64,000 nucleotides of DNA from a virus. The stretch lies in IMG/VR virus record IMGVR_UViG_3300037427_004270; one strand, 5' to 3'. A model generated the notes under the pieces. It was not told the origin of the DNA. It ran no database searches and saw only the letters and a list, made by a program, of their open reading frames with translations. Positions within the stretch are counted from its first letter, which is position 1. Every line of letters begins with the position of its first letter. A program made the translations under genes and the position numbers. This document shows positions 14,768 through 38,710 of the stretch, piece by piece.

Positions 14768-16030
14768 CTATCCCATAAGAATAACTAATGGAACCTTCTG
14801 GTGAATTCTATTTGCATTATCAACAAGATCTGCATCACCTTCCATCAACTTGGCGTATGTTAGTTCGTCAAGAACAGTCTTGAGTTCATCTCTCAAGGTT
14901 GTTTGTTCTTCTCTTGCCTGAGTCGCTAACTGCTCTCCATTGAGGGTTACTGAATCTCCCGGAATTGGAAGTGTTGCAAACTTGCTTCTTATGAGGCCCA
15001 AAGTCTCTTTACATAATGATAGAGCGAACCTTCTTATCCATTGCTTGCCGATAGCGTTTATATTATCATAAGGCAAGTTGCCAAAAGGAATTGTGTTTAT
15101 ATTGTTAATTCCGGCGACGCCAATAGATCTATCGGAGTCCTCTTGCCAAGAATCTGAAGGGATGGTAAACTCAAACCATATCTTATTATAGATGTTTGCT
15201 TCCGGAATAGGGAACAATCTTATCTTGTTGTTTCTTAACTCGTAGGAGTAATGGCTGGTTCTTGTGTATAGACTGTCTTCATACGCCATTGCTTGTAGTT
15301 TATTTTGCCAAGGTGGTATAACCTCGTATGTAGAATCGTCTGCATATTGCCCATAAGTTGACATATTGCCAACCACGCCGAGGCCGCCATAGTAGCCATA
15401 AAAGCGCCACATGGTTTTTGGAGTCTTGTAAAAGACTTTCTTTACAAGTATCTTGTTCTTATTTGTTCCGGTTAAAGAGCCGCTAAAAGCTGGCATTGCG
15501 GAAACAATAGTTTGTAAATCATAGTCTTGTTTGCCTGTCTTAACATCTATTGAAGCGGAGTATGTAGTTTGGTTTCCGCCGACGCCAGCATCTTCGGAGA
15601 TGCCATCTGCAACACGCCTTGCATAACTAAAATCAAAGGAAGGGTATTTTAACGAAACGTGCGAGCCGCTAAGGGACGAAGAGAGTTGACCGGACATTAT
15701 ATTGCCTTTGTGGTCAAAAGCTCCTGTGGTGTTCCCCAGGACGTCAGAGAGTATGTTTTTACTTTGATGTATGTTAACAAGGTAACTGTACTCTAAAACA
15801 GCCTCTTCGTAAGCCGCATATACTGTGTCTTCTTTTATTTCTAAGTCGAGGACGTCTCCCCCAAGTTTTTTATAAACATAGTTAACTTGGGCAGAAGCTC
15901 CGGATAAAAACTCAGCGTTCCCTGAATATACGCCATATGGCAAAGCAGCGTCAACGTTACCGATTGTTCCTGTGGCTGGCAGGGTTGATGCGTTAGTGGT
16001 GCTTTTTGGGTTTAAATTTGGTAAAGACAT
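14768..16030 (-). CDS. Neck/head-tail adaptor protein (T4 gp13-like)
   Basis: Start moved to MSLPNL at 16030 (GGAGG RBS; the tracked 16117 start runs through the terminator). Motifs YKKLGGDVLDLE, AYEEAVLEYSY, WIRRFAL.L.KETLG.IRSKF..PIPG..VTLNG; follows the MCP. Confidence 0.8.
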   Translation of the reverse strand: MSLPNLNPKSTTNASTLPATGTIGNVDAALPYGVYSGNAEFLSGASAQVNYVYKKLGGDVLDLEIKEDTVYAAYEEAVLEYSYLVNIHQSKNILSDVLGNTTGAFDHKGNIMSGQLSSSLSGSHVSLKYPSFDFSYARRVADGISEDAGVGGNQTTYSASIDVKTGKQDYDLQTIVSAMPAFSGSLTGTNKNKILVKKVFYKTPKTMWRFYGYYGGLGVVGNMSTYGQYADDSTYEVIPPWQNKLQAMAYEDSLYTRTSHYSYELRNNKIRLFPIPEANIYNKIWFEFTIPSDSWQEDSDRSIGVAGINNINTIPFGNLPYDNINAIGKQWIRRFALSLCKETLGLIRSKFATLPIPGDSVTLNGEQLATQAREEQTTLRDELKTVLDELTYAKLMEGDADLVDNANRIHQKVPLVILMG

Positions 16031-16058
16031 ACATGTTTCCTCCGAGTGTCCAACATTA

Positions 16059-16065
16059 TAAATAG
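16059..16065 (-). promoter_or_regulatory. CTATTTA motif upstream of the neck gene
   Basis: ACTATTTATA between the MCP terminator and the GGAGG RBS. Confidence 0.5.
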
Positions 16066-16085
16066 TAAGAAAACACCGTAAATTG

Positions 16086-16114
16086 AAAAAAGAAACGCCC
16101 TCACAGGGAGGGCG
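16086..16114 (-). terminator. Intrinsic terminator after the major capsid gene
   Basis: Minus strand CGCCCTC-CCTGT-GAGGGCG followed by TTTCTTTTTT. Confidence 0.85.
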
Positions 16115-16144
16115 CATCTATTAGTCATGTTTTAGGTTAGTATA

Positions 16145-17833
16145 TTAGCCCTGCATATCAGAGATAATAACCAAGCCGTACATGTCAGGACGTACCATTT
16201 TCTTAGCGTAACGAGTCATTACGCCTTTTCTTGGTACGAAGTCTTCAGGACCAAAAATGGTCGGTGTGACTTGCAATGGAACGTAAGGAGCATAAACATA
16301 TCCACTTTCGAGGAAGCTGCTACCTTTACGGCCAACTAATACAACGTTACGTGGGAAGTATGGGTCAACATAAACTTCCAACTTACCGCTCAAACTACCG
16401 ACGTTAACTGCACCAGTGGTACCTTTGTCGTCGTCATGAGTAACCTTAGCTTTGAAGCCAGCGGTGAATTCAAGCAAGTTAGCTGCTTCTGGGGATACAA
16501 CGATGAAGTTGGCTCCGCCGCGCAACGTTTTGCGGTGAATCTGTGCTGAAACGTCATTGATGGTTTCGAGAAGAGTCTCGTACCATTCGCTAACAGTACC
16601 AGTGAAGTCTGCACCGAGCAAGGATTCGTTCGCGCTAGTGCTGATTTGCAAACCAGTTTCGCGGTTCAAGAACTTACCTGGGCGACGTGACCAGTAATAG
16701 GTTGATGCGGTTGCACCGTTGATCAAGTCATTCAAGATTTCCTGATCGAGTTCAAGAGCAATGTGCTCGGAAAGAACGTTTGTTAATTCAACTTCAGCGT
16801 CTAAGTTGTGATAAGCGTTCAAGTCTTGTCCTAATTCAGGAGTCCACTTTGCTTTCAACTTCTTAGTAACTGCAGTAACAGCAATGCTATCAACGTTGAT
16901 GTTGATCTCAGGGATGTTACCATCGTTCTCTAAGCCCCATTCAGCTGCACCAACAACAGAACCGATAGCACGAGGGCCAGCGTTGAAGTTGTCAACCAAA
17001 GGATAGCTCAAAGTACCAGCAATGTTTGCTGCACCGATGTTTGCGCTCATACCAGAGAACATGATGTCAAGGTTGTTGCCACTAAGCGTAGTCAAACGAC
17101 GAACTTGGTTAGCACCAGACAAATGACCTGCAGTAGTAGGCGTAAACACGATTTGAGTCAAGTTTTCTAAGTTAATTTCATCTCTAAAGGATGTGATAGC
17201 GATTCTCAACTGCTGACACTTAGTAGTGCTAGCTGCAACCAAGTCAGGGTCATGACGAATAGCTTTCAATGAAACTTCGTTCATGCTGCCTGGAGCAACA
17301 GAAGCAGACAACTGAGTACCCGTTCTGATTGCGTTCAAAGACTGCGAACCAGTAGGTGAACTGTAAGAGTTGTTCAAGTTGTAGAAACCACCAGATGCTT
17401 CAGTAAGAGCAGCATTGGCAAGACCACCAGTAATTTGCTGGCCGAGGGTTCCGCCGCCATAAACTGATTTATCAGCAACACCACCACCACGAGTCTTGTC
17501 TAACTTGAAATCCAAGAAGAAGATAAGACCAGATGGAAGGCTCATAGGCTGAACACTTACCAGTTCATTTGCGATTAAGTTACCGAATACACGACGAACG
17601 ATAGGAAATGCAACGGATGCAAAACCTTCAACATCGGCACCAGCCATGGATGAAGCTTCACGGAGAAGTTCTTTTGCTTGGTTTTCGAGCAAGCGGCTCA
17701 TATAATTTTTTGATTGTGAGGAAGTAAGACCTTCGAGAAGACCAGTATTTTCCCACTTATTCAGTAATGCAGCGCCTTCACCAGAGAGGTCACGCTCTAC
17801 AATACCTTCAGTTAATTTTTCAATAACAGACAT
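16145..17833 (-). CDS. gp23: Major capsid protein (T4 gp23-like)
   Basis: LLNKWENTGLLEG, AFPIVRRVFGNLIANELVSVQPMSLPSGLIFFLD, TKKLKAKWTPELGQDLNAYH, GYVYAPYVPL, GVMTRYA. Confidence 0.97.
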   Translation of the reverse strand: MSVIEKLTEGIVERDLSGEGAALLNKWENTGLLEGLTSSQSKNYMSRLLENQAKELLREASSMAGADVEGFASVAFPIVRRVFGNLIANELVSVQPMSLPSGLIFFLDFKLDKTRGGGVADKSVYGGGTLGQQITGGLANAALTEASGGFYNLNNSYSSPTGSQSLNAIRTGTQLSASVAPGSMNEVSLKAIRHDPDLVAASTTKCQQLRIAITSFRDEINLENLTQIVFTPTTAGHLSGANQVRRLTTLSGNNLDIMFSGMSANIGAANIAGTLSYPLVDNFNAGPRAIGSVVGAAEWGLENDGNIPEININVDSIAVTAVTKKLKAKWTPELGQDLNAYHNLDAEVELTNVLSEHIALELDQEILNDLINGATASTYYWSRRPGKFLNRETGLQISTSANESLLGADFTGTVSEWYETLLETINDVSAQIHRKTLRGGANFIVVSPEAANLLEFTAGFKAKVTHDDDKGTTGAVNVGSLSGKLEVYVDPYFPRNVVLVGRKGSSFLESGYVYAPYVPLQVTPTIFGPEDFVPRKGVMTRYAKKMVRPDMYGLVIISDMQG

Positions 17834-18985: not shown

Positions 18986-19014
18986 AAAAAAAGCCCGGCA
19001 CATTGGCCGGGCTT
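18986..19014 (-). terminator. Intrinsic terminator after the 2965-aa gene
   Basis: Stem AAGCCCGGC (18991-18999) / GCCGGGCTT (19006-19014) with a T7 tail on the minus strand. Confidence 0.85.
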
Positions 19015-19047: not shown

Positions 19048-22000
19048 TTATAAGTCTGATGCAAATGGGGATGGATACCATTCACCATTCTCACAGAAGT
19101 ACCATTTATTGACATTTCCAAATGTTTGTTGCGTAATCGCATCTGCACTTGCCCAGCTTGAGCCGGAGACAATATAGATCATCGAACCGTTGTATGCACC
19201 TGGAGCTGCTGCCATTGTGTCCAAAACATTAACATCAGAAGCGTTGTCCTGACGGAAGTGTGTAAGACTCAAAAGACCAGTAACCGTAGTAACATCAGTT
19301 CTAGCATTACCAAGAGCTGAGTCACCCTGGACAGTCAATGTGCTTATCGTTGAGCCACTTGCATAAATGTGTGATGCTGACAAAGGAGCTGAAGTAAAAC
19401 TTACATTTCCTGTTGCGCCACCCAAAGATGCACTTGTTGTGAGGCCGAACTGAAAGCGGTCTGCTGACTCGTCCCAGATAAACAATGCGTCAACTGCTGT
19501 GCCTCTCTTCATGACAAGGCCAGTATCGTTGACGTTGGTCGCGCCATTGTCTGTATCACCACTACCACTGTTCAGCATAATCAAGTTATCGTAGAACGTT
19601 GTATTGGATGATGAGACATAAGTAACAGAGCCCTGTACAGTCAAGTTTCCACCAACAGTCAAGCCAGTGTTCAAAGACAAGGAGTCATCTGAAGCATTGT
19701 GCGTGATAGTTGTTGGGGAACCAGCACCGAAGCTAAGAACTGCGCCGTCACTTAACAATTTAAGGTCGTCACCAATAACAGCGTCTAATGCAACAGACAA
19801 ACCGCCGTCGGTCTGCAAAGAGCCGTCAGTTGTTGAAGTTGCGTTAGTTGTATCATCAGTCTTTAATACGCCAGAGAAAGTACCAGTAGTACCTGCAACT
19901 GTTGTAAACGTACCTGCCGCTGCAGAAGCTGCACCGATAACAGTGCCGTCAATCGCACCAGAGTCAATGTCAACGTTAGTTGAATTGTAGTTGGCATGAT
20001 CAACGTTTGAGCCCAACGTTCCAAGATTGGAAGTCGTTGCAGTCAAGGTTGTGACAGTTGCCGCTGCAGCACTTGCTGCACCGATGGTAGTACCGTCGAT
20101 TGCGCCACCGTTGATGTCAACAGTAGTCAAAGTAGACGTGCCAGTTGCAGTGATCGCATCAATGTAACCGTGGTCAATATGAGCTTCGGCCCACTGCTTT
20201 GCAGATGTACCCAAGTCGCTTGTGCTATCCAAAATAGGAATCAAGTCACTATCAAACTGACCAGTTACAGTAACGCTGTCTGTGGTAGCGTTACCTAAGT
20301 CAACGTCACCAGTTGCAGACAATGTTGTTGCAGTCAAAGCTTGAACAGCAGTTGTACCAGCGGAGACACTTAGGCCACCTTTGGTCACTGCCAAAGCATT
20401 GTTTGCAGTCAACGTGCTCTCAACGTGCATCGTGCCGCCGACTGACGCATTGCCAGAACCAGAGACAGTGCCCATAACAGTTAAGTTATTACCCAGGCTT
20501 GTTGCACCAGCAATTTGCAGTGTGCTAGAACCAGAGATGGTTGTAAACTTTGCAGTTGTTGCAGAGTTTGCACCGATAGCAGTACCGTCGATAGCACCAC
20601 CGTTGATGTCAACAGTAGTCAAAGTAGACGTGCCAGTTGCAGTGATCGCATCAATGTAACCGTGGTCAATATGAGCTTCGGCCCACTGCTTTGCAGTTGT
20701 ACCTAAGTCTCTCGCACTGTCAGTTGATGGAATCAAATCACTATCAAATTGTCCTGTTGCGGTGATGGTGTCCGTGGTTGCGTTACCTAAGTCAACGTCA
20801 CCAGTTGCAGACAAGGTTGTTACAGTTGCTGCTGCTGCAGAGTTTGCACCAATAACAGCTCCATCAATAGCACCGGAGTCAATGTTGACGTTAGTCATTG
20901 CTTCATCAGAGAAGTTAACAGCACCAGCCTGCTCGTAAGCACCGAGCTTAGTAACAGTCAAAGTATTATTAACTTGATCAAAAGTAATACCACTATCGTA
21001 GTAAAGGTTTGCAGATGAAGCTGCAGAGGCAGAAACCAATGCGAACGTCAATGTATCACCCGCCTCAACGCCGTCAGTTTGAGCAACACTCGCACCTACG
21101 CCTGTCAAGTTGGAGCCGTCACCATGAAAGGTTTTGGCATGCATTGCGGAAGCAGACAGTGGAGCTGAGTCAAAAGCTAAGTTTCCAGTCTGAGTTCCTA
21201 ACGAGCCCGACTTTAATGTTGCAATTTGGAAACGGTCTGCTGACTCGTCCCAGAACATTGCTGCATCAGTTGCCGCGCCGCGCTTCATGATGAGGCCAAT
21301 ATCATTGATGTTGGTCGCACCATTATCTGCATCACTACTGCCACTGTTCAAGACAATCAAGCTGTCATTAAGAACAGTGTTGGAAGAAGACACATAAGTT
21401 ACAGAGCCTTGCACAGTTAAGCTTCCGCCAACAGTCAAGCCAGTGTTCAAAGACAAGGAGTCATCTGAAGCATTGTGCGTGATAGTTGTTGGGGAACCAG
21501 TACCGAAACTAAGAACTGCACCGTCACTTAACAACTTGAGGTCGTCACCAATAACAGCGTCTAGCGCAACAGACAAACCACCGTCGGTCTGCAAAGAGCC
21601 GTCAGTTGTTGAAGTTGCATTAGTTGTGTCGTCAGTCTTCAAGATACCAGAGAAAGTACCTGTAGTACCTGCAACTGTTGTAAACGTACCTGCTGCTGCA
21701 CTTGCTGCACCGATGATAGTACCGTCGATAGCGCCAGAGTCAATGTCAACGTTAGTTGAATTGTAGTTAGCGTGATCAACGTTTGAGCCCAACGTTCCAA
21801 GATTGGAAGTCGTTGCAGTCAAGGTTGTGACAGTTGCCGCTGCTGCAGAAGCTGCACCGATGGTAGTACCGTCGATAGCACCACCGTTGATGTCAACAGT
21901 AGTCAACGTGGACGTGCCAGTTGCTGTGATGTCATCAATGTAACCATGATCAACATGAGCTTCTGCCCATTGCTTGGCAGATGTACCCAAGTCTCTTGCA

Positions 22001-25000
22001 CTGTCGGTTGATGGGATCAAGTCGCTATCAAACTGACCAGTCACAGTAACTGTGTCTGTGGTAGCATTACCCAAGTCAACGTCACCAGTAGCAGACAACG
22101 TTGTTGCAGTCAAAGCTTGTACAGCAGTTGTGCCAGCAGAAACCGTTAAGCCTCCCTTGGTCACTGCCAAAGCGTTGTTTGCAGTCAATGTGCTTTCAAC
22201 ATGCATTGTGCCACCAACTGATGCATTGCCAGAACCAGAAACAGTTCCCTTGACAGTTAGGTTGTTACCTAAGCTAGTTGCACCAGCGATGCCTAGAGTA
22301 CCAGAACCAGAAAGGTTGGTACCAGTCAAAGCTGCGAATGTACCTGCTGCTGCAGAGTTTGCACCGATGATAGTGCCGTCGATAGCGCCAGAGTCAATGT
22401 CAACGTTAGTTGAATTGTAGTTAGCGTGATCAACGTTTGAGCCCAACGTTCCAAGATTGGAAGTCGTTGCAGTCAAGGTTGTGACAGTAGCTGCAGCAGC
22501 ACTTGCTGCACCGATGGTAGTACCGTCGATAGCACCGCCATTAATGTCAACAGTAGTCAACGTGGACGTGCCAGTTGCTGTGATGTCATCAATGTAACCA
22601 TGATCAACATGAGCTTCAGCAAACTGCAAAGCAGATGTACCCAAGTCTCTTGCACTGTCGGTTGATGGAACAATGTCGCTGTCAAAGCGGCCTGTTGCAG
22701 TGATCGTATCAGAGGTAGCGTTACCTAAGTCAACGTCACCAGTTGCAGACAAAGCTGCGACAGTAGTTGAACCAGCAGAGACAACCAAGTTGCCGAGAGT
22801 AACAGTCAAGTTACCTGCTTCAACCTCTACGTTGTCTTCAACAGTCATGGTTGATCCGAATGCTGCGCCACCTTGTACAGACAAAGTGCCAGAGCCGGAC
22901 ATGTTACCAGCAACATTAAGTGTGCCAGAGCCAGACATGTTGCCTTCAACAGACAAGTTATTACCCAAGCTTGTTGCACCTGCAATTTGTAATGTGCTAG
23001 AGCCAGAGATGGTTGTAAACTTCGCAGTTGTTGCAGAGTTCGCACCGATAGCAGTACCGTCGATAGCACCAGAGTCAATGTTAACATTGGTCATAGCTTC
23101 GTCGGAAAAGTTAACAGCACCAGCCTGCTCGTAAGCACCAAGCTTAGTTGTAGTCAAGGTGTTTGTATTATTGTTGTACAGAAGTTGTCCGTCAGTCAAA
23201 ATACTTGCACCAGAGCCTGCTGCGGTAGTACTACCAAGAAGGTAAACAGTCGCATCATTATCACCACCATCAGCGGTAGTAATTGTGTCTGCGGAGATAC
23301 CTGTCAAGTTAGAACCGTCACCAGTAAAGAACTGTGCATGTACATGGGAAGCAGACAGTGGAGCTGAGTCAAAGCTCAAGTTTCCAGTCTGAGTTCCTAA
23401 CGAGCCCGACTTTAATGTTGCAATTTGGAAACGGTCTGCTGACTCGTCCCAGAACATTGCTGCATCAGTTGCTGCTCCACGCTTCATGATAAGACCAACA
23501 TCGTTGATGTTAGTTGCGCCGTTATCTGAATCACTACTACCACTGTTCAAGACAATCAAGCTGTCATTGAGTACAGTGTTAGAAGAAGAAACATAAGTCA
23601 CAGAACCTTGTACGGTTAAGCTTCCACCAACAGTCAAACCAGTGTTCAGAGATAATGAATCATCTGAAGCGTTGTGTGTAATAGTTGTTGGAGAACCAGT
23701 ACCGAAACTAAGAACTGCACCGTCACTTAACAACTTGAGGTCATTCCCGAGAACTGCATCTTTAACAACAGATAGGCCACCATCGGTCTGCAAAGAACCG
23801 TCGGTAGTAGTAGTTGCTTCAGTTGTGTCATCAGTCTTTAAGACGCCAGAGTAAGTACCTGTCGTACCCGCAACTGTTGTAAACGTACCTGCCGCTGCAG
23901 AGGCTGCACCGATAACAGTGCCGTCAATCGCACCAGAGTCAATGTCAACGTTAGTTGAATTGTAGTTGGCATGATCAACGTTTGAGCCCAACGTTCCAAG
24001 ATTGGAAGTCGTTGCAGTCAAGGTTGTGACAGTTGCCGCTGCTGCAGAAGCTGCACCGATAACAGTGCCGTCAATCGCACCAGAGTCAATGTCAACGTTA
24101 GTTGAATTGTAGTTGGCATGATCAACGTTTGAACCCAACGTTCCAAGGTTGGAAGTCGTTGCAGTCAATGTTGTGACAGTTGCCGCTGCAGCACTTGCTG
24201 CACCGATGGTAGTACCATCAATCGCGCCGCCATTAATGTCAACAGTGGTCAACGTGGACGTGCCAGTTGCAGTGATTGCATCAATGTAACCATGATCAAC
24301 GTGAGCTTCGGCCCACTGCTTTGCAGATGTACCCAAGTCGCTTGTGCTATCTAAAATAGGAATCAAGTCACTATCAAACTGACCAGTTACAGTAACGCTG
24401 TCTGTGGTAGCATTACCTAAGTCAACATCGCCCGTAGCAGACAAAGCTGCGACAGTAGTTGAACCAGCAGAGACAACCAAGTTGCCGAGAGTAACTGTTA
24501 AGTTACCTGCTTCAACTTCTACATTATCTTCAACAGTCAGGGTTGAACCCAAAGCTGCAGCACCTTGTACAGACAAAGTACCAGAACCAGACATGTTGCC
24601 AGCAATATTCATGTTGCCAGAACCAGAGATAGCCCCTTCGACTGACAAGTTGTTACCCAAGCTTGTTGCACCTGCAATTTGCAATGTGCTAGAGCCAGAG
24701 ATGGTTGTAAACTTTGCAGTTGTTGCAGAGTTTGCACCGATGGCAGTACCATCAATCGCGCCGCCATTGATGTCAACAGTAGTCAACGTGGATGTACCAG
24801 TTGCAGTGATTGCATCAATATAGCCATGATCAATGTGAGCTTCGGCCCACTGCTTTGCAGTTGTACCCAAGTCTCTTGCACTGTCAGTTGACGGAATCAA
24901 GTCACTATCGAACTGGCCAGTTACAGTAACTGTATCAGAAGTAGCATTACCCAAGTCAACGTCACCAGTTGCAGACAAAGCTGCGACAGTGGTTGAGCCA

Positions 25001-27945
25001 GCAGAGACGACCAAGTTACCGAGAGTAACAGTCAAGTTACCCGCTTCAACTTCTACATTATCTTCAACAGTTAAGGTAGAACCCAAAGCTGCGCCGCCTT
25101 GTACAGACAAGGTGCCTGAACCAGACATGTTACCAGCTACGTTAAGAGTTCCTGATCCGGAAATATTTCCTTCAACAGAAAGGTTGTTACCCAAGCTTGT
25201 TGCACCTGCAATCTGCAATGTACTAGAGCCAGAGATGGTTGTAAACTTTGCAGTTGTTGCAGAGTTCGCACCGATGGCGGTACCATCAATAGCGCCGGAG
25301 TCAATGTTGACGTTGGTCATTGCTTCATCAGAGAAGTCAACCGCGCCAGCTTGCTCATAAGCACCAAGCTTAGTTGTAGTCAAGGTATTCGTATTGTTGT
25401 TATATACGAGCTGCCCGTCAGTCAAGATACTTGCACCAGCGCCTGCTGCAGTGGTACTACCAAGAAGGTAAACAGTCGCATCGTTATCGCCACCGTCAGC
25501 GGTAGTAATTGTGTCTGCGGAAATACCTGTCAAGCTAGAACCGTCGCCATGGAATGTCTGAGCATGCATTTGAGAAGCAGACAATGGAGCTGAGTCAAAA
25601 GCTAAGTTTCCAGTCTGAGTTCCTAACGAGCCCGACTTTAATGTTGCAATTTGGAAACGGTCTGCTGACTCGTCCCAGAACATTGCTGCATCAGTTGCCG
25701 CGCCGCGCTTCATGATGAGGCCAATATCATTGATGTTGGTCGCACCATTATCTGCGTCACTACTGCCACTATTCAAGACAATCAAGCTGTCATTAAGAAC
25801 AGTGTTAGAAGAAGACACATAAGTTACAGAACCTTGTACGGTCAAGCTTCCGCCAACAGTCAAGCCAGTGTTCAGAGACAAAGAGTCATCTGAAGCATTA
25901 TGCGTGATAGTTGTTGGTGAACCTGTACCGAAGCTAAGAACTGCGCCGTCACTTAACAACTTGAGGTCGTCACCGATAACAGCATCTAATGCAACAGATA
26001 AACCACCGTCGGTCTGCAAAGAGCCGTCAGTTGTTGAGGTTGCGTTAGTTGTGTCATCAGTCTTCAAGATGCCAGAGAAAGTACCAGTAGTACCTGCAAC
26101 AGTTGTGAATGTACCTGCTGCTGCACTTGCTGCACCAATGGTAGTACCATCAATCGCACCAGAGTCAATGTCAACGTTAGTTGAATTGTAGTTAGCGTGA
26201 TCAACGTTTGAACCCAACGTTCCAAGATTGGAAGTCGTTGCAGTCAAGGTTGTGACAGTTGCCGCTGCAGCACTTGCTGCACCGATGGTAGTACCGTCGA
26301 TAGCACCGCCATTAATGTCAACAGTGGTCAGCGTGGACGTGCCAGTTGCTGTGATGTCATCAATGTAACCATGATCAACATGAGCTTCAGCAAACTGCAA
26401 AGCAGATGTACCCAAGTCTCTTGCACTATCAGTTGATGGAACAATGTCGCTGTCAAAGCGGCCTGTTGCAGTGATCGTATCAGAGGTAGCGTTACCTAAG
26501 TCAACGTCACCAGTTGCAGACAATGTTGTTGCAGTCAAAGCTTGAACAGCAGTTGTACCAGCGGAGACAGTCAAGCCACCTTTGGTAACAGCCATAGCAT
26601 TGTTCGCAGTCAACGTGCTCTCAACGTGCATCGTGCCGCCGACTGACGCATTGCCAGAACCAGAGACAGTGCCCATAACAGTTAAGTTACTACCCAAGCT
26701 TGTTGCACCAGCAATTTGCAGTGTGCTAGAGCCAGAGATGGTTGTAAACTTTGCAGTTGTTGCAGAGTTTGCACCGATAGCAGTACCATCAATTGCACCA
26801 CCGTTGATGTCAACAGTAGTCAATGTGGACGTGCCAGTTGCAGTGATTGCATCAATGTAACCGTGATCAACATGAGCTTCGGCCCACTGCTTTGCAGATG
26901 TACCTAAGTCTCTTGCACTATCAGTTGATGGCACCAAGTCACTATCAAATTGGCCTGTTGCCGTGATAGTGTCTGTGGTAGCATTACCCAAGTCAACGTC
27001 ACCAGTTGCAGACAATGTTGTCACAGTTGCCGCAGCAGGAGTTGTCCCACCAAGGACTGCATCAACAGTACCACCGTTAATATCGGCAGTAGTTGCAACC
27101 AAGCTAGCTGCAGTAGTTACACCAGCAGCACTAACGCTAAGCTTATCAGTACCGTCTGTTTGCTCAACATTAAACAATTGAGCTGTTTGGCTACCAACGC
27201 CTTTAACATTCAAAGTGATCTCGTCAGTAGTGTCACCGGTGATTGTGGCACCAGCAGCAACGACCAGTTGATCATTTGCAGTCAAAGTTGTGAATGTACC
27301 AGCAGCAGGAGTTGCTGCACCAACAGTTGTACCATCAATTGCGCCGCCGTTGATGTCAACAGTAGTCAAGGTAGACGTGCCAGTCGCAGTGATGTTATCA
27401 ATGTGACCAGTGTCAATATGAGCTTCGGCAAACTGTAAAGCAGATGTACCTAAGTCTCTTGCACTATCGGTTGATGGAACAATGTCACTGTCAAAGCGAC
27501 CTGTTGCGGTGATGGTGTCAGAGGTAGCATTACCTAAGTCAACATCGCCTGTAGCAGAAATATTCACAGTTCTAAACGTAGAACTTGCTGGGTTATATGA
27601 AATAGAACCCGAATGAATATACTGAGTTTCAGAGCCGCCAGAGGCAGAGACAAACGTTAAATGTAAATAATTGTCTGTGTCTGCTGGGCTAGTAGAAGCA
27701 TTTTCCACTGAGCCTCCAACGCCTGATAAATTAGAACCGTTACCATAAAAATATGATGCCGATATCTTTCCGCTAGCAGACAATGATAAGCCTGTAGCGT
27801 TGTTGTCTCCGCCTGCAGCGGAAGACGAAATAGTTAATGAGCCACTAAAATAGTGAGCACCATTATCCAGAGAACGAAATTTGGTGTCTTTCCAATTCGC
27901 TCCAGAGCCGGATATAACGGCTATACCTCTTGGATCAATAGGCAT
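19048..27945 (-). CDS. Giant repetitive fibre/decoration protein (2965 aa)
   Basis: T/G/A/S/D-rich; built from shuffled modules (9x GDVDLGNAT..., 4x LKTDDTT...FWDESADRFQ); ends in the shared WYFCENGEWYPSPF module. Confidence 0.85.
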   Translation of the reverse strand: MPIDPRGIAVISGSGANWKDTKFRSLDNGAHYFSGSLTISSSAAGGDNNATGLSLSASGKISASYFYGNGSNLSGVGGSVENASTSPADTDNYLHLTFVSASGGSETQYIHSGSISYNPASSTFRTVNISATGDVDLGNATSDTITATGRFDSDIVPSTDSARDLGTSALQFAEAHIDTGHIDNITATGTSTLTTVDINGGAIDGTTVGAATPAAGTFTTLTANDQLVVAAGATITGDTTDEITLNVKGVGSQTAQLFNVEQTDGTDKLSVSAAGVTTAASLVATTADINGGTVDAVLGGTTPAAATVTTLSATGDVDLGNATTDTITATGQFDSDLVPSTDSARDLGTSAKQWAEAHVDHGYIDAITATGTSTLTTVDINGGAIDGTAIGANSATTAKFTTISGSSTLQIAGATSLGSNLTVMGTVSGSGNASVGGTMHVESTLTANNAMAVTKGGLTVSAGTTAVQALTATTLSATGDVDLGNATSDTITATGRFDSDIVPSTDSARDLGTSALQFAEAHVDHGYIDDITATGTSTLTTVDINGGAIDGTTIGAASAAAATVTTLTATTSNLGTLGSNVDHANYNSTNVDIDSGAIDGTTIGAASAAAGTFTTVAGTTGTFSGILKTDDTTNATSTTDGSLQTDGGLSVALDAVIGDDLKLLSDGAVLSFGTGSPTTITHNASDDSLSLNTGLTVGGSLTVQGSVTYVSSSNTVLNDSLIVLNSGSSDADNGATNINDIGLIMKRGAATDAAMFWDESADRFQIATLKSGSLGTQTGNLAFDSAPLSASQMHAQTFHGDGSSLTGISADTITTADGGDNDATVYLLGSTTAAGAGASILTDGQLVYNNNTNTLTTTKLGAYEQAGAVDFSDEAMTNVNIDSGAIDGTAIGANSATTAKFTTISGSSTLQIAGATSLGNNLSVEGNISGSGTLNVAGNMSGSGTLSVQGGAALGSTLTVEDNVEVEAGNLTVTLGNLVVSAGSTTVAALSATGDVDLGNATSDTVTVTGQFDSDLIPSTDSARDLGTTAKQWAEAHIDHGYIDAITATGTSTLTTVDINGGAIDGTAIGANSATTAKFTTISGSSTLQIAGATSLGNNLSVEGAISGSGNMNIAGNMSGSGTLSVQGAAALGSTLTVEDNVEVEAGNLTVTLGNLVVSAGSTTVAALSATGDVDLGNATTDSVTVTGQFDSDLIPILDSTSDLGTSAKQWAEAHVDHGYIDAITATGTSTLTTVDINGGAIDGTTIGAASAAAATVTTLTATTSNLGTLGSNVDHANYNSTNVDIDSGAIDGTVIGAASAAAATVTTLTATTSNLGTLGSNVDHANYNSTNVDIDSGAIDGTVIGAASAAAGTFTTVAGTTGTYSGVLKTDDTTEATTTTDGSLQTDGGLSVVKDAVLGNDLKLLSDGAVLSFGTGSPTTITHNASDDSLSLNTGLTVGGSLTVQGSVTYVSSSNTVLNDSLIVLNSGSSDSDNGATNINDVGLIMKRGAATDAAMFWDESADRFQIATLKSGSLGTQTGNLSFDSAPLSASHVHAQFFTGDGSNLTGISADTITTADGGDNDATVYLLGSTTAAGSGASILTDGQLLYNNNTNTLTTTKLGAYEQAGAVNFSDEAMTNVNIDSGAIDGTAIGANSATTAKFTTISGSSTLQIAGATSLGNNLSVEGNMSGSGTLNVAGNMSGSGTLSVQGGAAFGSTMTVEDNVEVEAGNLTVTLGNLVVSAGSTTVAALSATGDVDLGNATSDTITATGRFDSDIVPSTDSARDLGTSALQFAEAHVDHGYIDDITATGTSTLTTVDINGGAIDGTTIGAASAAAATVTTLTATTSNLGTLGSNVDHANYNSTNVDIDSGAIDGTIIGANSAAAGTFAALTGTNLSGSGTLGIAGATSLGNNLTVKGTVSGSGNASVGGTMHVESTLTANNALAVTKGGLTVSAGTTAVQALTATTLSATGDVDLGNATTDTVTVTGQFDSDLIPSTDSARDLGTSAKQWAEAHVDHGYIDDITATGTSTLTTVDINGGAIDGTTIGAASAAAATVTTLTATTSNLGTLGSNVDHANYNSTNVDIDSGAIDGTIIGAASAAAGTFTTVAGTTGTFSGILKTDDTTNATSTTDGSLQTDGGLSVALDAVIGDDLKLLSDGAVLSFGTGSPTTITHNASDDSLSLNTGLTVGGSLTVQGSVTYVSSSNTVLNDSLIVLNSGSSDADNGATNINDIGLIMKRGAATDAAMFWDESADRFQIATLKSGSLGTQTGNLAFDSAPLSASAMHAKTFHGDGSNLTGVGASVAQTDGVEAGDTLTFALVSASAASSANLYYDSGITFDQVNNTLTVTKLGAYEQAGAVNFSDEAMTNVNIDSGAIDGAVIGANSAAAATVTTLSATGDVDLGNATTDTITATGQFDSDLIPSTDSARDLGTTAKQWAEAHIDHGYIDAITATGTSTLTTVDINGGAIDGTAIGANSATTAKFTTISGSSTLQIAGATSLGNNLTVMGTVSGSGNASVGGTMHVESTLTANNALAVTKGGLSVSAGTTAVQALTATTLSATGDVDLGNATTDSVTVTGQFDSDLIPILDSTSDLGTSAKQWAEAHIDHGYIDAITATGTSTLTTVDINGGAIDGTTIGAASAAAATVTTLTATTSNLGTLGSNVDHANYNSTNVDIDSGAIDGTVIGAASAAAGTFTTVAGTTGTFSGVLKTDDTTNATSTTDGSLQTDGGLSVALDAVIGDDLKLLSDGAVLSFGAGSPTTITHNASDDSLSLNTGLTVGGNLTVQGSVTYVSSSNTTFYDNLIMLNSGSGDTDNGATNVNDTGLVMKRGTAVDALFIWDESADRFQFGLTTSASLGGATGNVSFTSAPLSASHIYASGSTISTLTVQGDSALGNARTDVTTVTGLLSLTHFRQDNASDVNVLDTMAAAPGAYNGSMIYIVSGSSWASADAITQQTFGNVNKWYFCENGEWYPSPFASDL
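19400..27560. repeat. Dispersed near-identical intragenic repeat modules within the giant fibre gene
   Basis: Long nucleotide blocks such as AAGTCAACGTCACCAGT(T/A)GCAGACAA and TGCAAAGA(G/A)CCGTC recur many times; differences are mostly at synonymous positions. Confidence 0.9.
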
Positions 27946-27958
27946 ATTTTTTCCCTCC

Positions 27959-27982
27959 TTCTTCGTCGAATATCACGAAGAA
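27959..27982 (-). promoter_or_regulatory. 5' UTR hairpin abutting the SD of the 2965-aa gene
   Basis: mRNA UUCUUCGU-GAUAUUCG-ACGAAGAA directly followed by GGAGGG-AAAAAAU-AUG. Confidence 0.65.
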
Positions 27983-28015
27983 ATAAATTAAAAGTTTACT
28001 AATGTTTCCCATCTA

Positions 28016-28453
28016 TTAACTTAGATGAAAGAACATGTCAGGTACCCACGCACTATTGCGCGAAAAATACCATTTGTGGCCTTGCGAGAAAGCCTGAGCT
28101 GCGTCATTGCTGACTGCGACAGAACCTCCATTGGCAATTGCACCTTTCGTAAGGCCAGTTGAATTTAGATATATAACGTGTCCATTGTAATCTTCTGGCG
28201 CTGCAGCCAGAGTATTTAAAATACCAATATCATTTTCAGAACCTGAAGCATATACTGGAATTCTAAAGACGCCATGAACCTTCGTCACATCGTTAACGTT
28301 GTTTGTCTTTCTACCTAACATCGTACTACCAGAGATGGCCAATGCTTTATTGGACCCTCCCGCAGAAATGATAGCCGAACCATCGTCCAAAAACCTATGG
28401 ACATTGGTCGGTGATGAACCGGTAGTGACTTGCAACCCTCTTCTTCCTACCAT
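28016..28453 (-). CDS. 145-aa protein made only of the N- and C-terminal modules shared with the 370-aa and 2965-aa proteins
   Basis: LQVTTGS..DDGS N-terminus and ILNTLAAAPEDYNG...KWYFSRNSAW C-terminus; strong GGAGGG RBS. Confidence 0.8.
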   Translation of the reverse strand: MVGRRGLQVTTGSSPTNVHRFLDDGSAIISAGGSNKALAISGSTMLGRKTNNVNDVTKVHGVFRIPVYASGSENDIGILNTLAAAPEDYNGHVIYLNSTGLTKGAIANGGSVAVSNDAAQAFSQGHKWYFSRNSAWVPDMFFHLS

Positions 28454-28467
28454 ATTATTTTCCCTCC

Positions 28468-28491
28468 TTCTTTGTCAAATATCACAAAGAA
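28468..28491 (-). promoter_or_regulatory. 5' UTR hairpin abutting the SD of the 145-aa gene (covarying copy of 27959-27982)
   Basis: mRNA UUCUUUGU-GAUAUUUG-ACAAAGAA followed by GGAGGG-AAAAUAAU-AUG. Confidence 0.65.
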
Positions 28492-28745
28492 ATTAAAAGT
28501 TTCTTTTTTTACGAATGAGGCGTATATTAAAGGTGAGTTTCCGCAACAAGTATATAAAATTGGCAACTCTTACCTCCCGAAAAAGGTTTCTTAATAAAAC
28601 GCCCTTCTTCACAAGCATCCCTTCTCAAACGTGGGGCTTGATATTAGTATTTAGTGAGAAAAGTGTGGTTTATTGCCTGTTTGCTTCAAGTTCTCTGAAA
28701 AAAGTTCCTGCACGTTTTTTATCAAATATTTTATGCAGATCCAAT

Positions 28746-28769
28746 AAAAAACCCGGCGCGGGGCCGGGT
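28746..28769 (-). terminator. Intrinsic terminator after the four-paralog cluster
   Basis: Minus strand ACCCGGC-CCCGC-GCCGGGT followed by TTTTT. Confidence 0.8.
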
Positions 28770-28797
28770 CTTGAAAGTATGTTGTGCGAGCGTGTTA

Positions 28798-29880
28798 TTA
28801 GCTTACATCTTTTGTGAAAAACTCAAAGCCATCAATTAGCGCATCGTGACACAAATAGTCGTCATCATGGGTTATAGCATGAGCCGTATAATAGCCACAG
28901 TCTTGAGATTTCAAGGTTGAGTTTGAACTATCCCATTGTCTATAGTAAGAATCAGTAGTCGCTATTGAAATGGTTGTCTGCTTTGTCCATGTTTCGTTAC
29001 TGAGAGTTTCTCCAATAGGTGCGGTATAGATCTCAACCTTATCGGCACTAGCTTGTGGTGTCACATCCATCCGAACATGATACCATGTGTTGAACGAGCC
29101 TGAAAATATAGTCTCATGAAGACTGTTGGTACCCGAACTAATGCCGTGAGAAATATCATTTGTTTTATGAGCGTGGAATTTCAAGCGAGGAACCCTTGCA
29201 CCGACTTTGCCAGCTTCACTGGTTCCGCCCTGAGCGCCGTCGCTGTCGTCTCTCAAGGTTGAGAGCGTCAAGCAATATCCCGTCATTCTTGGGTTGTAAT
29301 CGCCACCAGAGCCATAGAAAGCATCTACAGCGTCTTCGGTAGCGTCATTAAAATAAGACGCACTTAGAGAGCCTGTTCCTGAACTTACATAGTCTCCCTG
29401 CTGGGCGGTGCCTGGGCCGATGCCCTTGACGAACAGGCCAATTTCTGAGCCTTGATTTCTCTCGGAGTTGGCGACTATTGAGGAGTTGTCGTTGCCCAGT
29501 CTCAAGAAAGCTCGAATACTGTAGGCAATTGTAGTACCTTCCGCAGGAGTTGCGTCAACTGGAAAGTCGCTTCCTGAGTCTGAGCCCGTTGTTATAAACG
29601 CCGCCATAATGCATGCGTTGTGATAGCTATTGTTGGAATGAATGCTGGCCTGGCCATACATATATCCAGTGCAATAATCTCCCGCAGAAGCTGGTGCTGT
29701 GCCGGACAAGAAGGAGTGTGGGACGATAGAGCCAAAAGCTGCTTCGCCACCGCTGGTAGCTGCCCATGGGCCACCATTGCCGTAGGCCAAGAGGGACATG
29801 AAACGTTCCCCCCCTTCGAACTCGCCGGAATTGCCGCCGTACATGCCGGCATATCTAAAGTTTGAACGTGAAATTCCCAT
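28798..29880 (-). CDS. Putative beta-sandwich (lectin/ConA-like) virion protein, family A copy 2
   Basis: Highly similar to 31018-32106; SFNTWYHVRMDVTP..DKVEIYTAP core. Confidence 0.7.
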   Translation of the reverse strand: MGISRSNFRYAGMYGGNSGEFEGGERFMSLLAYGNGGPWAATSGGEAAFGSIVPHSFLSGTAPASAGDYCTGYMYGQASIHSNNSYHNACIMAAFITTGSDSGSDFPVDATPAEGTTIAYSIRAFLRLGNDNSSIVANSERNQGSEIGLFVKGIGPGTAQQGDYVSSGTGSLSASYFNDATEDAVDAFYGSGGDYNPRMTGYCLTLSTLRDDSDGAQGGTSEAGKVGARVPRLKFHAHKTNDISHGISSGTNSLHETIFSGSFNTWYHVRMDVTPQASADKVEIYTAPIGETLSNETWTKQTTISIATTDSYYRQWDSSNSTLKSQDCGYYTAHAITHDDDYLCHDALIDGFEFFTKDVS

Positions 29881-29895
29881 TTTATTTTTCTCCTA

Positions 29896-30996
29896 TTAGC
29901 TTGATATATTTTTTGAATACACAGTTAGTGCATCTAAGTATGCGTCGTGGTTTCTGGACCGGGTGCTAAGGGTTGAGCCATTTTGATCTCTCCACGCCTG
30001 CACACAATAACCCAAACCCCTGTGGTTTTGGGCATGCTGACGAGTGACGTAATGACAAGTTCCAGCAAAACGATATTGAGTTGCTCTTTTTGTCCATGTT
30101 TCCGAACCTATCGTGTCGGTTGCGGGTGCTGTGTAAATTTCAATTTTGTCTGTTCCTGGTAAGGGCGTAATGTCCATCCTTATGCGATACCACGCATTGA
30201 ATGCGTATGAGCCTTGGCACTTGTGAACTCTTGGTCGTTGAAACGTGTTCCCAGCGGCGGCTTCGTTCGCATGAGGGCCAGTACTAATGAAAAGAAGTCT
30301 TACCACGCCAACATTCCCCCTGTTGGTATCTTTAACGCTTGAGCCATCACCATCGGAGTCAATATCGTCGTTGCCCCAAGAGTAATGCTTCATACTAGAA
30401 AGCCAGAGAGTGTACCCGTTTATTAAGGTGCCGTAAGTATCCGTCTTGGAGTACACTGCATATCCATAATCATCACCATCGGCATCGGTGGTGTATCTAG
30501 CTGTGGTGGATGGCGTTCTAGCTCCAAAGAACAGACCCACTGCAGTGCCGCTTGACGTATATTGACTCACTGATGCTGTGTAGAGACAGCCCAATCTGAC
30601 TGTGGCTCTCATAGAGACAGCAGTTGCTTGGCTGCGCTTTCCTGTTGAGTTTGCAAAGCTTGCTGCTGCGCTCCAAGCTGAACCACTGTTTGGGTCTAGT
30701 CTTGGCCCCAAGGATCTAGTTCCCAAGAAACCCATGCCATACCAACCTCTATTGTAGTTGTTCACTGAGTAATTGTATTGGCTGAAGATCCACCCTCTTG
30801 CATAATCTCCGCAAGTGGTTATTGCGCCAGATAACGTGGAATGGGGAACTGACATTCCCTCTGCAGCATATCCGCCGTTAGTACCACTTTCGCTGCCATT
30901 GCCGCGAGCCATGTTGTGGGCAGCCATTCTCACGTTGCCGTCGGTGGCGTCGTTGAGGGTCGTATACCCTAGAAAATTAAAATCCTGTTTTGCCAT
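29896..30996 (-). CDS. Putative beta-sandwich virion protein, family B copy 2
   Basis: Highly similar to 32122-33195; FNAWYRIRMDITP..DKIEIYTAP core. Confidence 0.7.
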   Translation of the reverse strand: MAKQDFNFLGYTTLNDATDGNVRMAAHNMARGNGSESGTNGGYAAEGMSVPHSTLSGAITTCGDYARGWIFSQYNYSVNNYNRGWYGMGFLGTRSLGPRLDPNSGSAWSAAASFANSTGKRSQATAVSMRATVRLGCLYTASVSQYTSSGTAVGLFFGARTPSTTARYTTDADGDDYGYAVYSKTDTYGTLINGYTLWLSSMKHYSWGNDDIDSDGDGSSVKDTNRGNVGVVRLLFISTGPHANEAAAGNTFQRPRVHKCQGSYAFNAWYRIRMDITPLPGTDKIEIYTAPATDTIGSETWTKRATQYRFAGTCHYVTRQHAQNHRGLGYCVQAWRDQNGSTLSTRSRNHDAYLDALTVYSKNISS

Positions 30997-31017
30997 CTCT
31001 TGTTCCTCTCTTTGTTA

Positions 31018-32106
31018 TTAAGTCAAATCTTTCGTAAAAAACTCAAAACCATCTATTAATGCATCGTGAGCCAAATAATCATCATCGTGAGTTTTACAGT
31101 GAGCCGCGAAAAAGCCACAGTCTTGTTGTTTGGAAGTAGAATCTGTTGAATCCCAGCTTCTGTAATATTCGTCTGTGGCGTATATACGCACTGTCTCTCG
31201 CTTTGTCCATGTCTCGCTACCCAGGGCGTTTGCAATAGGGGCCGTATAAATTTCTACCTTGTCATGCCCCGATATTGGTGTTACGTCCATTCGAACATGA
31301 TACCAGGTATTAAAAGAACCTGAAAAGATTTCAACATGCTTGCTGTTAACGCCTGGTAAGACGCTGTGGTTGATATTATTCGTTCGGTGGGCGTGGAACT
31401 TCAGGCGTGGAATTCTTGCACCTTTTACGCCAGCTTCACTGGTTCCGCCAGTTGTTCCGTCGCTGTCGTCTCTCAAGGTTGACAAGGAGAGATAATACCC
31501 AGACATTCTTGGGTTGTAACTGCCGCCAGACGCATAGAAAGGATCGGTGGCATCTTCGTCAGCGTCGTGATAATAAGACGCACTTAGAGAGCCTGTTGGT
31601 GAGGCTGTATAGTCATTCTGTTGGTTTGTTCCTGGGCCGATGCCCTTGACGAAGATACCGATTTCTGAGCCTTGATTTCTCTCGTGGTTGGCGTTTATTG
31701 AGGAGTTGTCGTTGCCCAGTCTCAAGAAAGCTCGAATACTGTAGGCAGTTCTGGTCCCTTCATTTGGAACTGTGTCCACTGGAAAGTCGCTTCCTGAGTC
31801 TGAGCCCGTTGTTACGAATGCTGCCACGAGGTGTGCCCTATGGTAGCTATTATTCGAAGGGTGACTGGCTTGTCCGTACATATAACCAAGGCAAAAGTCC
31901 CCCGCAGAGGCTGGTGCGGTGCCAGACAAGAAGGAATGTGGAACGACAGAGCCAAAAGCTGCTTCGCCGCCGCCCTCGTTGTTGTTGGCCCAACCAGCGC
32001 CTTGGTGTTGGCTTGCCAGTGCTGCCCATCGCTGAGCTGCATCGGTCGTGCCCGTACTGCCTATCCATGAGCCTGCGTATCTAAAATTTGAACGTGAAAT
32101 TGCCAT
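31018..32106 (-). CDS. Putative beta-sandwich virion protein, family A copy 1
   Basis: MAISRSNFRYAG start matches 28798-29880; long identical stretches. Confidence 0.7.
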   Translation of the reverse strand: MAISRSNFRYAGSWIGSTGTTDAAQRWAALASQHQGAGWANNNEGGGEAAFGSVVPHSFLSGTAPASAGDFCLGYMYGQASHPSNNSYHRAHLVAAFVTTGSDSGSDFPVDTVPNEGTRTAYSIRAFLRLGNDNSSINANHERNQGSEIGIFVKGIGPGTNQQNDYTASPTGSLSASYYHDADEDATDPFYASGGSYNPRMSGYYLSLSTLRDDSDGTTGGTSEAGVKGARIPRLKFHAHRTNNINHSVLPGVNSKHVEIFSGSFNTWYHVRMDVTPISGHDKVEIYTAPIANALGSETWTKRETVRIYATDEYYRSWDSTDSTSKQQDCGFFAAHCKTHDDDYLAHDALIDGFEFFTKDLT

Positions 32107-32121
32107 GTTACTTTTCTCCTA

Positions 32122-38448: not shown

Positions 38449-38710
38449 TGATCGCACCCATATCCCCAAGGCCGTCTTCTAGTTCTGGTGTTGGTTCTTC
38501 TTTTCTAGCTATTGACTTCAGGCCTCTATATAGGTCTTCGCATTCTTGTTCAGATGGTAAAACCGGAGGCTCTCTAAGTAGGCCCTGTGCTACGGTCGCG
38601 AGCATGCCTTTTACGCTATCTAAAGATGCGTCGTTTTCGGTAATTTCGGAAGAGAAGTTCTCTACCTCTTCTTTTATGATTTGTTTTAATCTGCCCTTAG
38701 TTATTTTCAT
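38441..38710 (-). CDS. Small acidic protein with an MKITKGRLKQIIKEE N-terminus (probable head-internal/core protein)
   Basis: Overlaps the protease stop codon; basic amphipathic start ending in I-K-E, then an acidic body. Confidence 0.65.
   Translation of the reverse strand: MKITKGRLKQIIKEEVENFSSEITENDASLDSVKGMLATVAQGLLREPPVLPSEQECEDLYRGLKSIARKEEPTPELEDGLGDMGAINE

Follow-up and report, generated by a model that had tools for sequence, protein, structure and literature searches.

Known fiber designs and the locus compared with them

Modular fibers that keep their attachment ends constant are a standard feature of phages, and T4 fibritin (wac) consists of an N-terminal neck anchor, a coiled-coil shaft and a C-terminal foldon of 27 amino acids (aa). 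The fiber of adenoviruses docks to the capsid through an N-terminal tail, which is followed by a shaft of variable repeats and a C-terminal globular trimerizing domain, and two fiber genes of unequal length are found in HAdV-F40/41, aviadenoviruses and atadenoviruses (avian, lizard) (PMC8156859). Flagellotropic phages, 7-7-1 and phiCbK among them, have head fibers whose proteins are still unassigned (PMC12796354). In this study, a stretch of 64,000 nucleotides (nt) from the IMG/VR virus record IMGVR_UViG_3300037427_004270 (hereafter, the window) was analyzed, in which a small gene of 145 aa (o145, protein P0002; 28016-28453, minus strand) is followed by a giant gene of 2965 aa (P0001; 19048-27945, minus strand), while a related gene of 370 aa (o370, P0004; 33221-34333, minus strand) is located farther upstream. 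All three share a short N-terminal module (N-module) and a second, longer module (C-module), and we consider it reasonably probable that they belong to a family of modular virion fibers made of an N-terminal attachment tag, a variable shaft and a C-terminal cap.

Among the described systems, the adenovirus fiber appears to be the closest known design and T4 fibritin the closest phage parallel, both of them as analogies and not as memberships. The likeness to the adenovirus fiber lies in the tail-shaft-knob design and in the adjacent short and long paralogs that have the same ends and are both kept, but the length ratio is far more extreme here (145 versus 2965 aa), and the adenovirus fiber has a beta-sandwich knob and a triple beta-spiral shaft, whereas the C-module is a small alpha/beta domain. 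No Pfam match to an adenovirus fiber family was obtained for the window proteins, nor was there a fold match in the PDB, and the one Av_adeno_fibre match seen in the protein L011_451 (E = 0.016) stays below the cut-off and is not evidence. Like fibritin, the family belongs to a T4-like phage and has a dispensable or variable shaft between a short, putative N-terminal attachment part and a small, putative C-terminal folding nucleus, and a fusion of its C-module to a neck protein also exists. The shaft of fibritin is a coiled coil, whereas the repeats here are rich in Gly, Ser, Thr and Ala, and the small unit modeled by AlphaFold2 (AF2) is made of strands and short helices; the foldon has 27 aa against ~80 aa in the C-module; and the fibritin gene comes after the neck genes, whereas the family genes lie between the protease and the scaffold. 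When P0001, P0002 and P0004 were scanned against Pfam-A and PHROGs (E ≤ 0.01), no family was returned, fibritin and tail-fiber families included, and the PDB sequence search gave nothing meaningful and no fibritin. Head fibers and decoration proteins (phi29 gp8.5, 7-7-1, phiCbK and T4 Hoc) resemble the family in that the genes lie among head genes and the predicted products are long and flexible, and the Ig-like He_PIG cargo of the o370-type relative P0030 recalls Hoc. Neither gp8.5 nor Hoc was matched in Pfam, PHROGs or the PDB sequence search, and the window proteins contain no Ig domain.

Shared modules and variable shafts

The initial annotation had described o145 and the giant as minimal and giant versions of one gene, sharing a C-terminal module and a more weakly matching N-terminal one, and the two open reading frames (ORFs) as well as both module matches were confirmed. 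The C-module aligns between residues 26-141 of o145 and residues 2858-2961 of the giant with 35% identity (E = 3e-15), and a hidden Markov model (HMM) of the C-module recognizes the last ~85 aa of the giant (19051-19305, minus strand; ...YNGSMIYI...KWYFCENGEWYPSPF) with an independent E-value (i-E) of 7e-30. The consensus of this module, ~80 aa in length, is ...D..xL..LA...YNGxMIYL...KWYFCENGxW.PSPF. In o145, the N-module (residues 1-25) is joined almost directly to residues 26-145, which are equivalent to residues 2858-2965 of the giant, so that o145 corresponds approximately to the giant minus residues ~30-2857; the module alignments thus agree with the earlier description of the giant as the small gene with ~2800 aa of repeats between its modules. 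The direct comparison of the two N-modules was not significant (E about 6). Nevertheless, an HMM trained on 14 homologous N-termini, with the giant left out, matched residues 5-16 of the giant (i-E 9e-5) as the top match among all window proteins, at the same terminal position as in the N-module family. A 359-aa homolog from the contig L011 also aligned with residues 6-79 of the giant (38% identity, E = 7e-5), its C-terminus matching as well (E = 7e-18), and intermediates of 359, 451 and 586 aa carry the N-module together with the C-module. Judged from these profile and direct matches, the N-module of the giant (~residues 1-30; 27856-27945, minus strand; MPIDPRGIAVISGSG...LDNGA) is truly homologous to that of the small gene despite the weak pairwise match. 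The N-module consensus over ~25-30 aa is M-V-x-[RK]-R-G-[LI]-[QA]-V-x-[TS]-G-S...V-[HF]-x-[FL]-x-D-[DN]-G. The 370-aa gene had been taken for a third version with appended repeats. It shares 56% identity with o145 over a stretch of 141 aa (E = 4e-44), and its small unit (residues 1-145) is indeed followed by four repeats of ~55 aa each.

Among 1.84 billion representative proteins, which were searched exhaustively, only 16 relatives of o145 were detected, and in these neither the N-module nor the C-module corresponds to a Pfam or PHROG family; the IMG/VR relatives were obtained by an alignment-based scan, as a single protein as query gave none there. The family includes small units (P0007, P0012 and P0029), intermediate proteins with an N-module, a shaft and a C-module (P0019, 359 aa; P0031, 451 aa; P0017, 586 aa), a giant relative of 2346 aa (P0023) and small units with C-terminal cargo (P0006, P0008, P0009, P0013, P0014 and P0030), the cargo of P0030 being a He_PIG Ig-like domain placed after the small unit (E = 2e-17). 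The shared modules bear out the earlier proposal that the three window genes form one family, and the He_PIG domain stands where o370 carries its appended cargo. Adjacent family genes were also found on other contigs. The 119-kb IMG/VR contig L010 carries a pair of 136 aa and 2346 aa, and the shaft repeats of its giant (...DLNELSAATVAV.ADSIAIIDADD...) are unrelated to those of the window giant, while the N- and C-modules are kept. A small and a giant gene are arranged in L004 as in L010, genes of 451 and 359 aa stand in tandem in L011, and an o370-type gene is accompanied by a gene of 134 aa in L013 and of 111 aa in L015. The recurrence of the small and giant pair, with a wholly different shaft, in a diverged phage is a new observation.

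The units of the giant's shaft were located by motif mapping, since self-BLAST of the giant was uninformative. The shaft is rich in G, S, T, A and D without heptads, and it comprises 11 'A' units of ~80 aa (ATGDVDLGNAT...DSxxDLG...AEAH[IV]D), four 'G-B' units of ~240 aa (TDGSLQTDGGLSV...LNSGS...MKRG...WDESADRFQ) and several linker modules, with super-repeats at DNA spacings of 1776, 2199 and 2226 nt that share 80-95% nucleotide identity. In the contig L018, whose o145 is 95% identical to that of the window, the first ~76 aa of the giant are kept and are then followed directly by the module that corresponds to residues 775-891 of the window giant, and the nucleotide alignment of the two giants collapses past the N-module. 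Because the module order differs in L018 while the N-module is kept, the shaft is evidently reshuffled on a short time scale with its ends held. In Flavobacterium phage immuto, a protein annotated as virion structural gave a weak match to the G-B unit (E = 2e-4). The motif F/Y-x-G-D-G-S-x-L-T-G, present in the giant and in the 2280-aa gene o2280, recalls the Chlorovirus glycoprotein repeat (PF06598), but the match of GDGSNLTG in the giant (residues 1539-1553) is sub-threshold (17.8 versus 27 bits) and covers a 15-aa shaft motif alone, not the conserved ends; PF06598 is also a precomputed annotation of two proteins of 909-915 aa that bear the C-module. An arrangement of one giant and two small chains with the shaft looped out was considered and rejected, since the super-repeats are direct and not palindromic.

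In AF2 models of o145 and o370 (two runs), the C-module is a small alpha/beta domain with a predicted local distance difference test (pLDDT) score of about 90. Residues 62-140 of o145 are confidently modeled; helices span residues 73-84, 86-89 and 116-121, and strands span residues 93-96, 127-132 and 135-138, while the N-terminal 60 residues are not confidently predicted and the flanks are disordered in these monomer models; in o370, the C-module part alone is confident and the appended repeats have a pLDDT of about 25. DUF7274 was hit twice inside C-modules below significance (E = 0.09-0.18), and the ESM-Atlas feature search, with scores ≤0.89, offered the PF26209 and DUF2793 clusters as leads.

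The C-module profile detected five copies in four window proteins, namely o145, the giant, o370 and, with two copies, o477. This 477-aa protein (P0003; 6475-7908, minus strand), whose family is assigned to PF26696 by precomputed annotation, lacks the N-module, carries the two C-modules in tandem at its C-terminus (6481-6924, minus strand; i-E 7e-20 and 2e-24) and is encoded in the neck/tail block, next to the gp15-like gene and the sheath gene. A motif that precedes its C-modules, IPRMTTTQRNSISNANGTMIYNTTDNVFQFYQNGSW, resembles a compact C-module core (IP..., NGxMIY, FYxNGxW). Besides o477, the proteins L011_266 and L012_264 end in a C-module without having an N-module. In L011_266 (10926-11726), residues 1-161 are 57% identical to each N-domain of o2280 and the last ~56 residues are the C-module. 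The gene o2280 itself (7916-14758, minus strand, 2280 aa) starts with two tandem N-domains of ~150 aa (13658-14758), which are followed by ~1900 aa of fiber-like repeats; the N-domains of o2280 and of L011_266 gave weak PHROG matches to head closure Hc2 (E = 0.0014-0.014). The neck protein of this phage group thus carries variable appendages, which are repeats in o2280 and a C-module fusion in L011 and L012. Because the C-module ends proteins that have no N-module, because an additional anchor would be superfluous in a neck-ring protein, and because the He_PIG cargo lies after the C-module in P0030, the C-module is more likely a terminal or sub-terminal folding, oligomerization or knob domain, and the short N-module an attachment tag (N-tag), which is the simplest reading to fit every architecture. 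The single shared anchor that had been proposed for the family could refer to the N-module alone, as the C-module also ends N-module-less proteins, including the Hc2-like neck protein.

Duplicated leader, selection and the fiber interpretation

As previously claimed, the same element of the 5' untranslated region stands before both genes: ~55 nt before the ATG of o145 and of the giant can be aligned, differing by a single 4-nt indel and a few substituted bases, and the 19-nt core of the leader (GACRAAGAAGGAGGGAAAA) occurs in exactly two copies in 64 kb against 0.1 expected. The leaders of the giant (27946-28000, minus strand) and of o145 (28454-28505, minus strand) both contain a AAACTTTTAATTT box, a hairpin (27958-27983 and 28467-28492, respectively) with a stem of 9 bp and a loop of 8 nt, the ribosome-binding site GGAGGG and the ATG, with the 3' end of the stem reaching the first G of GGAGGG. 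The o145 leader is identical in L017 and L018, save for one base between GGAGGG and ATG in L017. When the small-gene leader of the window was compared with the giant leaders of the window, L017 and L018, which is a small sample, 97.8% of the cells paired, two of the nine pairs were double compensatory changes (U-A to C-G) and one pair turned into G-U, while five of the eight loop positions vary. This pattern supports selection on the stem, which is probably functional and would most likely act as a 5' stabilizer or a translation-tuning element.

A hairpin unique to o145 and the giant was considered and rejected, for hairpins of equal stability stand upstream of several further genes in the window, and when 39 window genes are ranked by upstream folding energy, o145 and the giant come only 6th and 7th. 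Unrelated hairpins that end 0-3 nt before the ribosome-binding site were also observed in other family genes (GTCCC-TGTGT-GGGAC in L014, 8 bp in the small gene of L013, 5 bp in L011_451 and 4-5 bp in the giants of L004 and L010), and none was found in this position in the 359-aa genes or in the small gene of either L004 or L010. The Rfam search returned no family for the leader or the intergenic region. The co-ordinated translation suggested in the initial annotation was not upheld: the shared leader is limited to the window phage and its close relatives, the small gene of L010 and L004 has a different, unstructured leader, and comparable hairpins precede other genes of the window. The shared leader is hence a lineage-specific by-product of tandem duplication and not a conserved regulatory link between the genes. 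The spacer between o145 and the giant is 70 nt long; because it contains no terminator while the pair is flanked by an intrinsic terminator that closes the upstream paralog cassette (28750-28765, minus strand) and, directly 3' of the giant gene, by a strong intrinsic terminator (18991-19014, minus strand) that has a 9-bp stem with 7 GC pairs and a T-run, the two genes should be co-transcribed, at least partly.

The 295-nt non-coding stretch from the terminator to o145 (28454-28748, minus strand) is 92-97% identical to L017 and L018 and is at least as conserved as the coding sequence of o145, in which ~33% of the synonymous sites are different. Its folding is not unusual (z -0.28), and it is probably promoter or regulatory DNA. 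A plus-strand ORF at 28515-28817 was taken as spurious, as it is not conserved in L017 and L018.

Compared with L017 and L018, o145 shows 34 synonymous and 8-9 non-synonymous changes, with a synonymous substitution rate (dS) of 0.43 and a ratio of non-synonymous to synonymous rates (dN/dS) of 0.057-0.064, and the small genes of L004 and L010 gave a dN/dS of 0.079. The small gene is, by these ratios, under strong purifying selection, which is a new finding, and P0024-P0026 are intact full-length variants. The small-type N-modules (RRGLQV..GS..VH.F.DDG) of different phages are closer to each other than to the long type of their own phage, which has the signature PRG[IL]AVI.GS...LDN. As the two signatures are common across phages, the duplication is older than the split of the window phage and L010, with both copies kept, and the small and giant paralogs are old genes that have been conserved separately. 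It is accordingly very improbable that the pair is meaningless, either because the small gene is a decaying partial duplicate of the giant or because the giant is a repeat assembly artefact. Such a history would suit the tandem duplication evident from the duplicated leader and a giant that is highly repetitive, with its exact sequence on a single contig, but low dN/dS in two lineages, intact variants, lineage-specific signatures (LQV...DDG versus [IL]AV...LDN) and an independent contig that has a 2346-aa giant with other repeats all speak against it. For the small gene, decay, which the initial annotation had itself raised as a possible objection, is largely refuted by the ratios and the intact variants.

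Two other explanations assign the genes a different function. That the family forms tail or baseplate fibers for receptor binding, with the N-tag on the baseplate and the C-module as the receptor-binding tip, we regard as unlikely, though the C-module is C-terminal in most architectures, the usual place of phage receptor-binding tips, the two-C-module protein o477 is encoded in the neck/tail block, and a shaft and a cargo that vary fast are what one usually sees in host-range proteins; on every contig that shows the flanks, the N-tag genes lie between the prohead protease and the scaffold and major capsid protein (MCP) genes, not among baseplate genes, and the C-module is also fused to the Hc2-like neck domain. 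Less likely still is o145 as an assembly factor that is not a component of the virion, one which would transiently co-oligomerize with the termini of the nascent giant, template their registration and then be released. The tight linkage and co-transcription of o145 with the giant (the 70-nt spacer, with terminators on both sides), the retention of the pair in L010 and L004 and the same leader on both genes in the window phage would all fit such a factor, but small units also adjoin shaft-less o370-type genes (L013 and L015), and the small unit forms the base of cargo-bearing proteins, so it is arguably a stable structural element. Fiber chaperones are not known to be truncated copies of their client.

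In the modular virion fiber that we prefer, the N-tag (~25-30 aa) would dock each member to one common site on the particle, and the C-module would nucleate folding or trimerization and form a terminal knob. The shaft would be replaceable: it is missing in o145, present in the 359-586-aa proteins of relatives and expanded to ~2800 aa of recombining repeats in the giant, while the o370-type proteins would have no shaft and carry adhesion-like cargo after the C-module. Because both carry the same N-tag, the small protein and the giant would most likely fill the same kind of site, giving a virion with short knobs and very long fibers of roughly 150-250 nm, a length we estimated from the residue-to-length ratios of T4 and adenovirus fibers. 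Whereas the homology of the modules, the retention of the gene pair, the purifying selection, the variable shaft and the place of the genes within the head-gene block are shown by the data, we infer the trimeric state, the polarity, the docking site and the presence in the virion. In the window and in L010, the scaffold-like gene and the MCP come right after the small and giant pair, and the N-tag genes lie between the portal-protease-o139-o138 block and the scaffold-like gene with the MCP wherever the flanks are visible. This position would favor a location at the head or neck over one at the tail; the capsid appendages of the initial annotation are no more than a suggestion from the gene position between prohead protease and scaffold and MCP. 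A bolder extension, rather unlikely as a whole, would make the N-tag and C-module a new fiber platform of marine T4-like phages, in which one docking site, perhaps on the capsid or its vertices, is filled in a controlled ratio by knob-only (o145), cargo (o370) and longer-than-tail (giant) subunits, with the C-module as a new autonomous trimerization domain that caps any shaft and with length tuned rapidly by repeat recombination.

Several observations weigh against the modular virion fiber. No usable fold match to the C-module was found in the PDB (best Foldseek E 3.9; best Z of the wide VIA-align search 2.9), where rows of collagen XV/XVIII trimerization domains (Z 2.8-2.9) were within noise. 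The N-module is internal in P0018 and P0020, with ~540 aa before it, which makes the polarity uncertain, and with regard to polarity the C-module is also not terminal in the o370-type proteins. The head-block position is circumstantial, as the group also puts fiber-like genes there (o996, with a MAM domain). No relatives of o145 or P0017 were detected by tblastn in 50,697 GenBank phages, so the family is known from genes alone, with no known member in a cultured phage. The exact giant sequence was present on one contig as compared to three with an identical o145, and given repeats that are 80-95% identical, the repeat order on this single contig could hold assembly errors.

The extra ~540 aa of P0018 and P0020 contain repeats such as 'SSSSGI...IYIA', give a weak Kelch match and are in frame before the N-module. 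In L001, 58 open codons 5' of the ATG of the 586-aa gene (1330-1503) encode the end of that domain (WGLSGSCSQQ), and the comparison suggests either a recent domain loss or the fusion of two genes.

If the fiber interpretation is true, abundant uncultured marine T4-like phages would use an adenovirus-like architecture of tail, variable shaft, trimerizing knob and tandem short and long genes, built from domains that are missing in Pfam, PHROGs and the PDB. The family would then provide a natural series of 134-2965 aa with the same ends for the study of how fiber length is set and evolves, the C-module would become a candidate for a folding or trimerization domain that is portable, and the N-tag and C-module together could serve as a marker for annotating anonymous virion genes in viromes. 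No basic concept is changed by this, and the family is best regarded as an uncharacterized variant of a familiar kind of virion protein.

Phage background and neighboring genes

The window phage is a distant T4-like myophage, because a large terminase (43023-44615), a T4-type portal (41046-43019), a prohead protease (38697-39329), a gp23-type MCP (16145-17833), a tail sheath (2669-5542), a tube (2011-2616) and a baseplate hub (1131-1991) were recognized; a gp13-like protein is encoded at 14768-16117. All long ORFs of the window are carried by the minus strand. The MCP is at most ~46% identical to those of GenBank phages, with Flavobacterium phage immuto, Rhodothermus RM378 and uncultured huge phages being the closest, and no close DNA-level match to the window was obtained among GenBank phages. 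Proteins identical to those of the window were also found in marine metagenomes, on contigs as long as 184,686 bp.

In the direction of transcription, the portal is followed by three small genes, the protease, o139, o138, o996 and o370, then by four ~360-aa paralogs, a terminator, o145, the giant and a further terminator, and finally by a 348-aa scaffold-like protein, the MCP, the gp13-like gene, o2280, o477, the gp15-like gene and the sheath. This synteny agrees with the partial contigs L010, L011, L012 and L013. In L013, the family genes come just after an o138-like gene. In the window and in L010, the scaffold-like gene directly follows a family gene, and the same holds for L011 and L012 except that a nuclease gene intervenes.

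In the 996-aa o996 (34427-37417, minus strand), Pfam recognizes a MAM domain (E = 9.5e-10) and PHROGs gave a weak tail-fiber match, and o996 is the first gene of the fiber-like block inserted between the prohead protease and the scaffold. The four ~360-aa paralogs (28798-33195, minus strand) alternate as A-B-A-B directly upstream of o145, with 71% and 65% identity inside the pairs and ~30% across them, and no Pfam or PHROG family was found for them. Their region has 50-70% nucleotide identity to L017 and L018 and is far more diverged than o145. A staphylococcal-nuclease-like (SNase) gene, absent at that position in the window, was observed between the fiber gene and the scaffold and MCP genes in L001 (3402-3938), L005 (2383-2892) and L011 (5879-6421), which represent the lineage that has a single mid-size fiber.

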